Part shown: positions 18,767-23,951 of the stretch, piece by piece | Numbering within the stretch: the first letter of the stretch is position 1 | Layout: the number at the start of each line of letters is the position of its first letter | Source of the DNA: Halarcobacter sp. | GTDB lineage: Bacteria > Campylobacterota > Campylobacteria > Campylobacterales > Arcobacteraceae | NCBI GenBank assembly: GCA_963676565.1 | Contig: OY781089.1 | Coordinates: 1,792,001 to 1,856,000 of the forward strand | Reading direction: 5' to 3' | Length of the DNA stretch: 64,000 nucleotides | Position numbers and translations under genes: made by a program | Notes under the pieces: model-generated | Told to the model about the DNA's origin: nothing | The model's input: the letters and a program-made list of their open reading frames with translations, nothing else | Databases searched by the model: none

Positions 18767-19762
18767 ATGAAAACAGTTACATTAGCCCATGGAAATGGTG
18801 GACAAGAAAATAATGAACTCATATCAAAGGTTTTTTATAAAGCTTTTAAAAATGATATTTTAGAAAAAAGTGAAGATGCTGCAGTTATCCAAAATGGTAC
18901 ATTGGCTTTTTCAACTGATTCTTTTACAGTTAGTCCAATAGAGTTCGCTGGTGCAGATATTGGAAAACTAGCAGTTTGTGGAACTTGTAATGACTTAGCT
19001 ATGATGGGGGCAAAACCAAAATATTTAACTTGTAGTGTTATTATTGAAGAGGGTTTCGAAGTTGAAACATTAAAAAGAATTGTAAATAGTATGAAAATAG
19101 AATTGGAAAAAAATGGCGCTCATGTTGTTTCTGGAGATACAAAAGTGGTACCACGAGGAAGTGTTGATAAAATTTTTATAAATACAACTGGAATTGGTGA
19201 AATTAAACAAAAAGGTATCTCTTCAAATAATATTTTAGAAGATGATGTGATTATTGTTTCAAATTCAGTTGGAAAACATGGTGCAACAATATTTGCAGCA
19301 AGAGAAGGTATTGATTTCTCATCTTCATTGGAATCGGATTGTGCTTCTCTTTGGCCAGTTGTAGAAAAACTTATTGAAAGTGGTATAAAAATTAGAGCCT
19401 TAAGAGATGCAACAAGAGGTGGTGTTAGTGCTGTACTTAATGAGTGGGCAAAGCAATCAAATATCTGTGTTGAAATTGATGAAGAAAAGATTCCCGTAAC
19501 TGATGAGGTTAATGGAGTTTGTGAAATGCTTGGCTTTGAAGCATTAAGTTTAGCAAATGAGGGTACCTTTGTCATGGCTATTTCAAAAGACCAAGTTGAA
19601 AAAGCAATGGATATTTTAAAATCGATTGATACTTCAAAAGAAGCAACTATTCTTGGAACAGTAAGTTCTAAACATCTAGGAAAAGTTGTGTTAAACTCTC
19701 CTTGGGGTACAGCTAGATTTATTGATTTGCCAACTGGTGAATTGTTACCAAGGATTTGTTAA
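18767..19762 (+). CDS. hypE: Carbamoyl dehydratase HypE
   Basis: LAHGNGG, GDTKVV, RDATRGG, ANEG, terminal LPRIC. Confidence 0.98.
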   Translation: MKTVTLAHGNGGQENNELISKVFYKAFKNDILEKSEDAAVIQNGTLAFSTDSFTVSPIEFAGADIGKLAVCGTCNDLAMMGAKPKYLTCSVIIEEGFEVETLKRIVNSMKIELEKNGAHVVSGDTKVVPRGSVDKIFINTTGIGEIKQKGISSNNILEDDVIIVSNSVGKHGATIFAAREGIDFSSSLESDCASLWPVVEKLIESGIKIRALRDATRGGVSAVLNEWAKQSNICVEIDEEKIPVTDEVNGVCEMLGFEALSLANEGTFVMAISKDQVEKAMDILKSIDTSKEATILGTVSSKHLGKVVLNSPWGTARFIDLPTGELLPRIC

Positions 19763-20103
19763 TGCATGAGTACTCAATAGTTCAATCTTTATTAGAAACA
19801 TGTGAAGAACATGCAAGACAAAATGACTCAAAACAAGTGACAAAAGTAATTGTTAAAATTGGAGTTTTATCTGGAGTAGAACCAGATTTACTTCAAACTG
19901 CCTTTGATACTTTTAAAGAAAAGACTGTTTGTGATGGTGCAGAATTTATTATTAATCATCAAAAAGTAGTCATTTCCTGTACTAATTGCCAAGAAGAATC
20001 TACATTAGAAAAACATGAATTTTCTTGTCCTAAATGTGAATCTACTCAAGTGAAAGTTATTGATGGTGAAGATATGTATTTAATGTCCCTTGAAATGGAA
20101 TAG
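19762..20103 (+). CDS. hypA: Nickel metallochaperone HypA
   Basis: MHEYS, CTNC/CPKC, C-terminal GEDMYLMSLEME; ATG overlaps the hypE stop. Confidence 0.97.
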   Translation: MHEYSIVQSLLETCEEHARQNDSKQVTKVIVKIGVLSGVEPDLLQTAFDTFKEKTVCDGAEFIINHQKVVISCTNCQEESTLEKHEFSCPKCESTQVKVIDGEDMYLMSLEME

Positions 20104-20162
20104 CCTATAAGCCCCCAAAATATGGGATTTAGTAAAAGTATAAATAACAAATTCCTCTAAAA

Positions 20163-20197
20163 TGTAGTATATTTTAATATCATTTGTAGTATATTTT
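20163..20197 (+). repeat. Direct repeat TGTAGTATATTTT x2 (22-bp period)
   Basis: Exact 13-mers at 20163-20175 and 20185-20197. Confidence 0.8.
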
Positions 20198-20240
20198 TTA
20201 CCGATTTAAATTTTTTAAAGCTTTAATATCAGGATAGTAT

Positions 20241-21785
20241 ATGACTCAAGAAGAATTAGCTTCATTACAAAAAAAGATTGATGAATCATTAGATACAAAA
20301 GATATTAATGAAATAAACAAAATCATTTCAGAAATTGAAAATAATATTGATTCAATAGATGATTTACATATGAAAACCAATTTATATTATTTGTTAGGAA
20401 ATTGCTATCGTGAGTTACACGATATTAAAAATGATGAAGATAATTCTACTATCTGGCATTATGAACAAAAGAATTTATTTAAAAGTATTTATTTTTATAG
20501 AAAATCAATAAGTGAAGAAAAATTTGAAGACTTTCAACTGCAATTGAAAGTGGGTCTTTTAACAAATCTTGCAAATTCCTTTAGTCATTATGGGAGACCT
20601 ATTGAAGCATTAAGATATTATAATCTTGCATTACTTGAAGATAAAAAAGAAAAAGTTTTAAAGAATAATAGCTATTTATATCCAAACTATTTTATGCTAT
20701 TGGCTAATAAAGGATGGTGTTTTCAAAACTATTCTAAGATAATATACGATAATTCTCATTCCCATTTACTTAACAAAGAGGCATATAGTTTTTTTCAAAA
20801 AGCAATTAAAAAGGTAGCTTTTTTTATTGAAAATACTAATTATGAATTTAGTTATGACTATTATAAGGAATTTAAAAATATTTTAGAAAGTAATTGTACT
20901 AGTTTAGAAAAATTTTATGGATTAGATTTTTTAAATAAAGATGAAAACTATAATGAGTACGAACTTTCAGAAAATGAAAATGAATCAAAATATCAAAAAT
21001 GGTGTTTACTTAATCAATTATATTTAAATCCAATGAATGATTTAGGAAATATAAATATTGCTGCACACGATATATTAGGATTACCAAATTTAAAAACTCC
21101 AATAAAAAATGGTTTTCCAATTTATATAACTTATTTCAATCAAATAAAACAAGAATTTATATTTAATAGAAGTCTTTTATTTGAAGGATTAAACAAGTTA
21201 ACTGAAAATTTTTATGATAATGATAAGAATATAATTGATGATTTTGATTATAACTTGTTTAATATGGATATTGAAAAAATTAAAATTGTATTTAGAGGCT
21301 TTTATGGTTTATTTGACAAAATTGCATATTTATTAAATGAATATTTGGAGTTAGGTTGGGATGATAGAAATATTGATTTTAATAAAATTTGGAAAAACCC
21401 AAATAACAAAAAACAATTAAGTTTAAAGCTTTTAAGTTTAGAGAATTATGCAATTAGAGGATTATATTTAATTAATAAAGATATATCATTTAATACTGAT
21501 GAAGAATTTGAGCAATCATTAGAACCTTATTCTAAAGATATGGCAAAAATAAGAAATCATTTGGAACATAAATTTTTAATGGTGAAGATTCTTAAACCTA
21601 TTAGAGATAATGATAGGGAGAGAAAATATTATCAAATCATAGAAGATGAATTAATTGAAAAAACAATAAGACTTGCTCAACTTGCAAGAGAAGCAATAAT
21701 TTATACTTCATTAGCAATTTACATTGAAGAAGAAAAAAAATATAAAGATGAATTAGTAATAGAACGGAAGTTAAATATTTATTAA
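20241..21785 (+). CDS. TPR + LA2681-like HEPN domain protein (predicted RNase/defence effector)
   Basis: TPR-like helices (YYLLGNCY, TNLANSFSHYGRPIEALRYY); LYLNPMND, FNQIKQEF, FDKIAY and HEPN Rx4H motif RNHLEH. Confidence 0.8.
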   Translation: MTQEELASLQKKIDESLDTKDINEINKIISEIENNIDSIDDLHMKTNLYYLLGNCYRELHDIKNDEDNSTIWHYEQKNLFKSIYFYRKSISEEKFEDFQLQLKVGLLTNLANSFSHYGRPIEALRYYNLALLEDKKEKVLKNNSYLYPNYFMLLANKGWCFQNYSKIIYDNSHSHLLNKEAYSFFQKAIKKVAFFIENTNYEFSYDYYKEFKNILESNCTSLEKFYGLDFLNKDENYNEYELSENENESKYQKWCLLNQLYLNPMNDLGNINIAAHDILGLPNLKTPIKNGFPIYITYFNQIKQEFIFNRSLLFEGLNKLTENFYDNDKNIIDDFDYNLFNMDIEKIKIVFRGFYGLFDKIAYLLNEYLELGWDDRNIDFNKIWKNPNNKKQLSLKLLSLENYAIRGLYLINKDISFNTDEEFEQSLEPYSKDMAKIRNHLEHKFLMVKILKPIRDNDRERKYYQIIEDELIEKTIRLAQLAREAIIYTSLAIYIEEEKKYKDELVIERKLNIY

Positions 21786-21806
21786 TAATAACTAAAAAAA
21801 GTGAAT

Positions 21807-21841
21807 AGTAGTATATGTTTTTTATGAATGTCGTATAAATT
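21807..21841 (+). repeat. Degenerate direct repeats AGTAGTATAT / TGTCGTATAA (22-bp period)
   Basis: Copies at 21807 and 21829 match the left-end repeat consensus WGTMGTATA. Confidence 0.5.
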
Positions 21842-21921
21842 AGTAGTTTTTCTTATAATTTTGAATATTTAAAGAAACAAATCCCTTAACAAAAGGAATT
21901 AAAGATATGTTTACATCAGTT

Positions 21922-21954
21922 GATATGTTTCTTATGAGCTTGGAGATGGAATAA
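21922..21954 (+). pseudogene. Displaced second copy of the hypA 3' end (DMFLMSLEME-stop)
   Basis: 9/10 aa and 24/33 nt identical to hypA 20071-20103, stop codon in the same register. Confidence 0.8.
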
Positions 21955-22046
21955 CTTAAGAAAGAAAATTAAAAAATACAATTAATATATAACTATCATG
22001 TTATTTTGTTATAATAATTGCCAAAGTGCCTAATAAAGGGTTCTCT

Positions 22047-23951
22047 ATGAGCAAAATAACATTAAAAAAACTTATATATAAAAATTATTTAAAAACAGCA
22101 TTAACTTCAATCTTATTTATTGAAATTATGCTTGTTTTTTTATATTTTAGTTCAAATAAAAGGGTTGTTAATTCAACTGTTGATTTTGCATTAAACGACT
22201 TGAAATTAAGTGTTTTAGATAGAGTTAATTCCACAACCTCTATTATTAATGAAAAATTTAACAACCTTGAAAATCAAGCAGCTCTTTTACAAAATGAACA
22301 TCAAAACTTCTTTTTATATAAAGATAATATAACTATAAATAATAAACCAAAGTTTGGTTTTGCATCTAATGGAATGTATTATAAAACTGAAAATAATGGA
22401 GGTTCATCAGTTGTAGTCTCAAAAAATACAACAATTGATAAAAACTTAAAAGATAAACTTACAAAAACAGAGATTTTTGATAAAAACTTTAAATCTATAG
22501 TTAGTAACAATAAAATAGTAGAAGCTGTATACTTTAATTCATATGATGATATTTGTAGATATTATCCATTTTTAGAAGATAGTTTTAATGTTTTCCCCTC
22601 TGATATAAAAATGGAAAACTATAATTTTTATTATGAAGCTGATAAAAAACATAATCCTAAAAAAGAACCAGTATGGACTGATGTTTATTTAGATCCTGCA
22701 GGTAAAGGTTGGATGATTAGTTTAATTGCACCTATTTATAAAAATGACTTTTTAGAAGGTGTAACTGGAATTGATGTAACACTATCTACAATTATTGATA
22801 CTCTTTTGAGTCTTAAACTTCCTTTTGATGGCTCATCAATGATATTGAATAAAGATGGAGATATTGTTGTAATGGGTGAAAAAATGGAAGGTTTTTTGAA
22901 AATAAAAGAAAACTACACATATGATTACAAAAATAAAAAAATTGAAAAAACAGTCTTAAAAAATGACAAAAGCAACATACTTAATTATAAAGATAAAAAT
23001 TTTGTGGAAGTATTAAAAAATGTAATTGGGAATAAATCATATCCCTATGAAATTACTTTAAATGAAAAAAAATATATGTTATTTATTAAAAAAATTGAGA
23101 TTACCGATTGGTTTTTAATTTCACTTATTCCAGAAGAAAATATTATATCCGAGGTAAAAAAACTAGAAGAGCAAAATCTATATTTAGGATATTTTATTAT
23201 TGGTTTTATTATAGTCTTTTATATTTTGTTCTTTATATATTTATATAAAAAAGCAAAAAACTTTGTAGAAACAATAAATAATCCTCTTTTAAAAATAGTA
23301 TATTTTACAAAATTCCTTGGAAGTAAAAAAAATATAAAGCAATTAGAACATTGCGGAATAGAAGAGATTGATTCTTTAAATGACAACTTTAATAATCTTG
23401 CCCAAGAATTAGATAAAAGAACAAAAAGACTTATTCAATCTGAAAGTAAAAGAAAAGAGAATGAAAAACTTGCAAATACGGATCAACTAACAAAGGTTTA
23501 TAATAGAAGATTTTTAGAAGATTTTTCAAATCGTTATATGAAAATTGTAAAAAGAGAACATAATACTTTATCTTTATTACTTATTGATATAGATGATTTT
23601 AAAACTGTAAATGATACTTATGGTCATGATGTTGGTGATAGGGTAATCAAACTTTTAGTTAAAAGACTTAAAACAAGTATACGAGATAATGATATTATTG
23701 TTAGACTTGGTGGTGATGAATTTTTAGTTTTACTTCCAAGTACACCCCTTGAAAATGCCAAAAAAGTTGGTAAAAAAATTTTAGATGTAGTAAATTCTTT
23801 AAATGAATTTGAAAATGAAGAACTTAAATTTACTATAACAATAGGTTCATCAGAGTATAAAAAAAGTGATTTACATATCAATGAAATGATCAATAGAGCT
23901 GATAATGCTTTGTATAAAGCAAAAAAACTTGGGAAAAATCAGGTTATATAG
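22047..23951 (+). CDS. dCache-sensor diguanylate cyclase
   Basis: TM, Cache motif WTDVYLDPAGKG, TM, HAMP-like linker, RLGGDEF with RDND I-site; TGTTATAAT promoter at 22007-22015. Confidence 0.9.
   Translation: MSKITLKKLIYKNYLKTALTSILFIEIMLVFLYFSSNKRVVNSTVDFALNDLKLSVLDRVNSTTSIINEKFNNLENQAALLQNEHQNFFLYKDNITINNKPKFGFASNGMYYKTENNGGSSVVVSKNTTIDKNLKDKLTKTEIFDKNFKSIVSNNKIVEAVYFNSYDDICRYYPFLEDSFNVFPSDIKMENYNFYYEADKKHNPKKEPVWTDVYLDPAGKGWMISLIAPIYKNDFLEGVTGIDVTLSTIIDTLLSLKLPFDGSSMILNKDGDIVVMGEKMEGFLKIKENYTYDYKNKKIEKTVLKNDKSNILNYKDKNFVEVLKNVIGNKSYPYEITLNEKKYMLFIKKIEITDWFLISLIPEENIISEVKKLEEQNLYLGYFIIGFIIVFYILFFIYLYKKAKNFVETINNPLLKIVYFTKFLGSKKNIKQLEHCGIEEIDSLNDNFNNLAQELDKRTKRLIQSESKRKENEKLANTDQLTKVYNRRFLEDFSNRYMKIVKREHNTLSLLLIDIDDFKTVNDTYGHDVGDRVIKLLVKRLKTSIRDNDIIVRLGGDEFLVLLPSTPLENAKKVGKKILDVVNSLNEFENEELKFTITIGSSEYKKSDLHINEMINRADNALYKAKKLGKNQVI

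Follow-up and report, generated by a model that had tools for sequence, protein, structure and literature searches.

A probable integrase-less, att-flanked element in the 3' end of hypA of Halarcobacter sp. and its relatives in the Arcobacteraceae

The DNA analyzed is a stretch of 64,000 nucleotides from Halarcobacter sp. (Arcobacteraceae; GenBank assembly GCA_963676565.1, contig OY781089.1, positions 1,792,001 to 1,856,000 of the forward strand), here called the window, in which the 3' end of the gene hypA is found a second time a short distance downstream. The DNA between the two copies (about 20104-21921), together with the displaced hypA end (21922-21954), is best read as an integrase-less, att-flanked element of the type of the cis-mobilizable elements (CIMEs), derived from a family of tyrosine-integrase islands of the Arcobacteraceae; we put the probability of this reading at about 0.8. 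A first, sequence-only reading of the window had proposed an element integrated in hypA as its attachment site, and had named three checks, i.e. empty sites, other cargo at the same junction, and an integrase-bearing version; all three were positive and thus support the earlier interpretation. The genome is referred to below as G000, and the other genomes by corresponding handles.

The target gene hypA (19762-20103, plus strand) encodes 113 amino acids and matches the Pfam HypA model over its full length (E 1.7e-34); according to the list of open reading frames (ORFs) and the Pfam results, it is the last member of the hyp gene row in the window. Its last 33 nt (20071-20103, plus strand) form the left copy of the repeat, on the attL side, and are the working end of the gene, with a TCC serine codon that is of element type by the identity profile. 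The same end recurs 1851 nt downstream as the right copy, on the attR side (21922-21954, plus strand), which is untranslated and of native type with an AGC serine codon; it aligns collinearly with the G014 and G010 empty sites and continues into the native downstream DNA. Counted on the sequence, the two copies are identical at 24/33 nucleotides and 9/10 residues, exactly as first noted, and a loosened pattern of the hypA-end peptide was found at exactly these two places when all six frames of the genome (3.34 Mb) were scanned. With the native hypA ends of G023, G006, G092, and G014, the right copy shares 91-94% identity. Upstream of 21922, comparison with the loci of relatives revealed no similarity to hypA, which removes the remnant of a longer hypA duplication that the sequence-only reading had named as a refuting outcome.

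Two exact blocks are contained in the repeat. The first, GATATGT (20071-20077, and again 21922-21928; plus strand), is the left limit of the duplicated hypA end, as defined by the starts of the remnants, and a candidate for the integrase overlap; the second, ATGGAATA (20095-20102, and again 21946-21953; plus strand), is positioned just before the stop codon of both copies and limits a 1851-nt presence/absence difference seen in strain contigs. The 7-nt block had originally been taken as the only identical stretch and as the single core of the junction; it stands as an exact block and as the fixed limit of the duplication on its left side. The second block, however, had been overlooked, and the indel among near-identical strains resolves in ATGGAATA and not in GATATGT. 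A third GATATGT is located inside the right arm of the element (21904-21910, as GATATGTTT), 18 nt before the remnant, and is kept in G024 and G097. When the 9 nt preceding 21922 are set against the reverse-complemented 9 nt that follow 20077, only 6/9 positions match by eye.

The interval 20104-21921 contains only one ORF of at least 40 amino acids with a family match (20241-21785), and no PF00589 match and no genes for integration, excision or transfer were found there in the ORF list and the Pfam scan, in agreement with the proposed single-cargo element without an integrase.

Empty sites were searched for by comparing the region with 40 relatives. In the closest species (G014, about 90% identity) and in G010, hypA runs directly into the DNA that follows 21954 in the window, and then into the gene of a dCache-GGDEF diguanylate cyclase, which in the window represents the right flank outside the element (22047-23951, plus strand; Pfam GGDEF, E 2.4e-46). 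Adjoining matches in G004, G006, G009, G003, and G022 suggest further empty sites. In addition, the assembled contigs of four public sequencing runs (from four studies; one isolate, three metagenomes) were compared with positions 19000-23000, for which the uncovered parts carry no information. All four runs bridge from 20094 to 21946 and skip 1851 nt, with eight letters that fit either side, and the flanks of these contigs are 97.6-100% identical to the window (differences at 5/1095 and 25/1055 positions in one run, and at 1/276 and 0/450 in the bridging contig of the isolate). The 1851-nt segment is therefore present or absent among near-identical strains. The expectation that empty sites carry native-type hypA ends held for G014 and G010, both collinear with the right copy, but not throughout, as several empty sites keep element-type codons: TCN serine codons were also found at the empty sites of G009 (L014), G016 (L004), and G099 (L067), and less clearly of G004 (L006). 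Over the 33 nt, G009 is 97% and G016 94% identical to the window, compared with about 80-85% upstream.

For other occupants of the junction, 184 genomes of the family were searched with hypA plus left arm, with the right arm, and with a second type each of left and right arm, and the fetched loci were inspected; hypA was matched in 137 of the 184. Ten occupied sites were identified (G000, G001, G007, G024, G097, G098, G185, G149, G150, and G151), a lower bound because only ends that resemble known ones can be found in this way; short matches past the hypA stop in G052, G013, and G012 were not counted. The first four of the ten belong to one genus. Each occupied site has the same layout of hypA, left arm, cargo, right arm, and second copy of the hypA end, so that nine other Arcobacteraceae species have, as had been predicted, cargo of other kinds at this junction, framed by homologous arms. 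The cargo comprises a UG17-type reverse transcriptase with a SLATT protein (defence-associated reverse transcriptase system, G001), a 1215-aa protein with a PADLOC Upx match (E 3e-191; G024), a DUF6471 protein, methyltransferase and specificity subunit resembling type I restriction-modification (G098), a PtuA-like ATPase (G150), a TetR regulator with an EamA transporter (G185), proteins without informative matches (G007, G097, and G151), and an integrase with type III restriction-modification and further genes (G149). Defence-type matches by PADLOC or Pfam are thus present in 5 of the 10 cargo sets (G001, G024, G098, G149, and G150), supplemented by the HEPN protein of G000, and an integrase is absent from 9 of the 10 sites.

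The sister genomes G150/G151 and G001/G007 have junction sequences in common and different cargo. For example, G150 (L036, 1606-3883) carries a PtuA-like ATPase and G151 (L072) an 841-aa protein without an informative match, and the arms of G150 are mosaic, the left one with GGTTGTAT repeats and the right one with repeats of the GTAGTATAT type. The sequences of this pair point to a putative exchange of cargo or arms inside a resident frame. Beyond the hypA remnant of G001 (L022, 6576-7988), a 457-aa ORF with no match in Pfam was observed, and 16 nt of the left-arm repeat region recur there exactly; a second element in tandem may have left these traces. A gene of 547-552 codons, which by eye looks HypX-like, is located between hypE and hypA in G001, G007, and G024 (L021, 1149-2792; L022, 1258-2901; L023, 1069-2727) and, judged by spacing, in about eight more genomes of the same genus; it is absent from the window and from the closest relatives.

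The integrase-bearing version at this junction is represented by G149. Its tyrosine integrase (493 aa; PF00589, E 2.6e-16) starts about 140 nt behind hypA and is 52% identical to the integrase of G041, a 510-aa tyrosine integrase located beside the paired repeat. The element of G149 (11.9 kb) encodes this integrase, a methyltransferase and a restriction enzyme of type III, a weak match to a replication protein, and small ORFs, and its right end comprises three arm repeats, a hairpin, and the hypA remnant. Its right arm is 72.5% identical to that of the window over 80 nt, the remnants of both start at the same nucleotide, with GATATGT, and in the attR of G149 this block is placed between a perfect 8-nt inverted repeat; remnant and flank are collinear with the empty sites of G130 and G154. 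Full-length relatives of the G041-type integrase are encoded in only seven other genomes of the family, counting G157, in which the gene is cut by the contig end. The 3' end of xth (exonuclease III) was observed as the target of an island of about 20 kb in G041 (L034/L073), G157 (L050), and G193 (L051); in G041, this island encodes the 510-aa tyrosine integrase together with a restriction subunit of type III, has GTAGTATA repeats paired at 22-nt spacing on each arm, and carries, at its far end, a recoded copy of the last 38 or so xth codons. Four other full-length integrases of the family adjoin tRNA gene ends (L076, G010; L077, G085; L078, G099; L079, G044), and in all four of these tRNA-site islands, the integrase gene is closely preceded by a tandem of two GTAGTATAA or GTTGTATAA repeats.

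The arms of the element in the window are organized in a similar way. The left arm (20104-20240, plus strand) contains a weak hairpin, two GTAGTATAT repeats (20164-20172 and 20186-20194; 22-nt spacing), and the ribosome-binding site of the cargo, and shares 80-87% identity with its counterparts in G001, G007, G024, G185, and G097. The right arm (21786-21921, plus strand) contains GTAGTATAT (21808-21816) and GTCGTATAA (21830-21838), again at 22-nt spacing, a weak hairpin, and the extra GATATGT, and is homologous to the right arms of G097, G150, G024, and G149. On the plus strand of the window, five occurrences of the loose motif GTNGTATAW were counted, and four of these form the two 22-nt-spaced pairs, one in each arm; the same spacing is found in G149 and in the xth island of G041. 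The exact repeat pair occurs once in this genome and in 7 of the 184 family genomes, compared with one for the reversed control: three of the seven are hypA elements, and three have the pair between the xth end and the gene of a G041-type integrase (G041, G157, and G193). The seventh pair (G133) was rejected as an element, because it is positioned inside a 630-aa ORF and probably reflects chance. A variant repeat, GGTTGTAT, is used in G149, G150, and G151. From their arrangement, the GTNGTATAW repeats are candidate arm-type binding sites of the integrase. The element thus presents one trait of tyrosine-integrase islands, the repeated putative arm-type sites on both arms, and lacks another, an encoded integrase. 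A second copy of either arm was not found in the genome itself, and a promoter and terminator scan of the arms yielded nothing above shuffled sequences.

Four lines of evidence support the interpretation that the working hypA end was supplied by the element and that the downstream copy is the native one. Firstly, the last 33 nt of hypA in G000 (nt 310-342) are 97% identical to those of G097 and G007, while the preceding 29 nt (nt 281-309) are only 66-79% identical; in the comparison with G097, identity jumps from 66% to 97% between these two stretches, while it drops from 83% to 76% in the comparison with the closest relative, G014. Across genera, the left copy shows 94-97% identity, which sets in sharply at GATATGT. 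Secondly, in three genera the downstream copy and its flank line up with the empty sites of congeners (G000 with G014 and G010; G097 and G098 with G095; G149 with G130 and G154). Thirdly, in genus g29, glutamine is encoded in 9/12 element-free hypA ends and in 3/3 remnants, at a position where others have serine, and serine in 3/3 working ends of occupied genes; at the level of the family, this supports a working 3' end supplied by the element. Fourthly, the type of serine codon separates the copies: a TCN codon is used in 9/10 left copies, 1/10 right copies, and 6/34 element-free ends, a count that leaves out G003, G011, and G019 of the same genus and for which mostly 60-600 nt downstream were read. 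The point at which the remnant starts to resemble hypA is also fixed: it is GATATGT in 7 of the 10 elements, with four dissimilar right-arm sequences in front of it, and in G098 it is shifted one base into this block; such a fixed start behind unrelated sequence is expected from site-specific recombination.

Several observations weigh against the reading of the region as an att-flanked element of this island family. The codon rule has two exceptions, an AGT-type left copy in G024 and a TCT-type right copy in G007, and the remnant similarity extends 3-8 nt further left in G001 and G007. The role as arm sites is assigned to the repeats from position and recurrence, and the hairpins beside them in the window score no better than shuffled sequences (z -0.34 and -0.90). 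The sister element of G185 carries TetR and a transporter and no defence genes, and for the cargo of the window no PADLOC or NCBIfam match was obtained. An integrase of the family is absent from this genome, so that any mobility is hypothetical. Finally, the near-identical empty strains carry the codons of the left copy up to ATGGAATA, followed by the native stop codon and flank, which would indicate either a second, non-canonical loss event in those strains or an insertion at the stop codon.

The last of these observations leads to the alternative with the best support, a reversed polarity in this genome: the working hypA end would be native, and the element would carry 24 hypA-like nucleotides at its right end and would have been inserted at the stop codon via the 8-nt ATGGAATA. 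All four strain runs join the codons of the left copy to the DNA after 21945 and are a single step away from G000, and the empty sites of G009 and G016 have the same codons. This explanation is nevertheless unlikely, because in 9 of 10 elements the remnant is of the type native to its own lineage (glutamine in g29, AGY codons elsewhere), and because TCN predominates in the left copies, with their high identity across genera and sharp start at GATATGT, and the collinearity of remnant and flank with congeneric empty sites extends over three genera; moreover, an earlier event at GATATGT would still be required to account for the codons.

Less probable still is an ordinary hotspot between core genes, in which cargo was exchanged only by homologous recombination after DNA uptake, without a site-specific event, and the arms represent nothing but conserved sequence between genes. 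The lack of an integrase at 9 of 10 sites, the different cargo within common junctions in the sister species (G150/G151 and G001/G007), and the mosaic arms of G150 would all fit such a hotspot; however, homologous recombination alone does not produce a duplicated gene end, let alone one that starts at a fixed point behind unlike arms, the integrase of G149 is located directly at the junction, and the same repeats adjoin integrase genes at xth and tRNA sites. A chance match, or the leftover of a local hypA duplication, might be considered for only 33 nt in AT-rich DNA, but can practically be dismissed, with the peptide present just twice in six frames of the genome, no hypA similarity upstream of 21922, and the same arrangement in nine other species.

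Under the preferred reading, i.e. an att-flanked remnant of an integrase island in hypA, islands of the family would use the GATATGT block, which precedes the hypA stop by 33 nt, as their site of recombination, bringing a substitute for these 33 nt and displacing the native hypA end downstream. The integrase would subsequently have been lost, or else the cargo between the conserved arms would have been exchanged, either through accretion and deletion or through homologous recombination. In the near-identical strains, the element would have been lost via recombination in ATGGAATA, leaving its codons in hypA as a scar, and the general cycle may thus consist of entry at GATATGT and loss by recombination further right in the repeat, with the codons remaining. 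Alternatively, the present element may have entered a scarred site through ATGGAATA, with a native-type fragment from an earlier host. What separates loss from entry through ATGGAATA is solely the direction of a single event.

No cognate integrase was found in G000, with no match to the family integrases at E 0.001; the best tblastn match in this genome to either family integrase had 25% identity over 250 residues (E 2e-6). Seven tyrosine recombinase (PF00589) matches are encoded in G000, all outside the element and none close to the family integrases, and no full-length family integrase was found in the other hosts of integrase-less elements among the family genomes searched; G010, of the same genus, encodes one with similar repeats at a tRNA site. 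Because G000 has no cognate integrase, the element would be stranded unless a helper arrives, and most likely it is unable to move at present without one. A working cassette system, in place of dead relics, can be proposed only tentatively: short, conserved arm modules would frame single defence genes, integrases at xth or tRNA sites or on larger arriving islands would move or swap these cassettes in trans, and each visit could leave its own codons in hypA. If so, the change of C-terminal HypA residues in one genus would represent hit-and-run rewriting of a host gene.

The single cargo gene (20241-21785, plus strand) encodes a 514-aa protein with tetratricopeptide repeats (TPR) and a HEPN domain of the LA2681 type (PF18733, HEPN_LA2681; E 6e-56, 189 bits with a cut-off of 27), in which the Rx4-6H motif is present as RNHLEH at residues 438-443; the TPR matches are below the Pfam cut-off (19.6 versus 27). 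The G+C content of the insert is 21.9% (cargo, about 22%), compared with 28.4% for the genome. Among the candidates scored, 132 homologues of the cargo were found at E ≤0.001, many of them in Campylobacterota and some named LA2681 family HEPN domain-containing protein. In PMC3710099, the LA2681 family is listed with the HEPN motif kept and with a fusion to TPR. A candidate paralogue near an integrase at 1.243 Mb (74% DNA match) was rejected, as tblastn with the cargo finds only the cargo itself. Judged by the HEPN family and by the defence cargo of the sister elements, the protein most likely acts on its own as an anti-phage or abortive-infection factor of the RNase type, encoded by a single gene.

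Several known systems resemble the hypA elements. CIMEs were defined for streptococci as cis-mobilizable elements derived from integrative and conjugative elements (ICEs) or integrative and mobilizable elements (IMEs), including an origin by accretion and deletion (PMC5704250). Common to both are att-type repeats of the end of a target gene, the lack of an integrase, and a relative at the same site that does encode one, and the mosaic arms observed here fit the accretion-and-deletion route. The hypA elements differ in that they belong to another phylum and target hypA, in that no conjugation genes were seen even in the integrase-bearing G149, and in that 9/10 of the hypA sites are integrase-less and mostly have one or two defence genes between conserved arms. 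As far as sequence comparison goes, the element is covered by the published definition apart from mobilization; the population at the hypA site looks more like a cassette frame than like random decay.

Islands and prophages that are integrated into gene 3' ends by tyrosine integrases likewise have the displaced native end downstream and an element-borne end that keeps the gene intact, and they share with the hypA elements the fixed start of the duplication, the repeats on both arms, and, in G149, the inverted repeat around the 7-nt block. Repeats on both arms and an inverted repeat flanking the core represent the usual layout of lambda-type att sites. The element of the window differs from such islands in that it has no integrase, in the recoding of the replacement (24/33 nt), and in the change from glutamine to serine in genus g29. 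Another element that resides in a protein-coding gene is the ICE Tn5253, in rbgA (PMC8571831).

In Pseudomonas aeruginosa, core defence hotspots between conserved genes have been described (PMC10250203) and share with the hypA junction a fixed site between conserved genes and an anti-phage cargo that varies across strains and species; the hypA site differs from these in having hallmarks of mobile elements, i.e. the duplicated gene end, the arm repeats, and one integrase. With a duplicated gene end in 10/10 occupied sites and the integrase of G149, it falls outside the hallmark-free class of hotspots. Among the listings and passages found in the searched literature, none reported hypA as an attachment site (PMC5495459, in the part consulted, does not link hypA to an island), and none reported defence hotspots in Arcobacter or Campylobacter.

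The likeness to an integron cassette was considered and rejected: the integrases of the family score 21-31 bits against the integron-integrase models (cut-off, 265), and the ends of the elements are direct repeats of a gene end and not an attC palindrome. Another analogy is provided by staphylococci, in which pseudo-SCC (staphylococcal cassette chromosome) elements at the end of rlmH (orfX) have no ccr recombinases and are presumed to depend on the recombinases of related elements. Like the hypA elements, these cassettes lack a recombinase and lie between repeats where a conserved gene has its 3' end, but they belong to a system of serine recombinases, to another phylum, and carry resistance cargo.

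For the Arcobacteraceae, these observations add hypA, and also xth, to the protein-coding genes that serve as attachment sites, and they define an integrase family with recognizable arm repeats that can be used to find its islands. The TPR-HEPN (LA2681) protein, at a site with mostly anti-phage occupants, is a reasonable candidate for single-gene defence. The wider interest concerns two points: the cassette-like, mostly integrase-less population at the site, mainly of one or two genes between conserved arms, raises the question of whether integrases encoded elsewhere service such cassettes, and the element codons kept at empty sites indicate a lasting change of the hypA end, by which a mobile element can permanently rewrite the end of a host gene.

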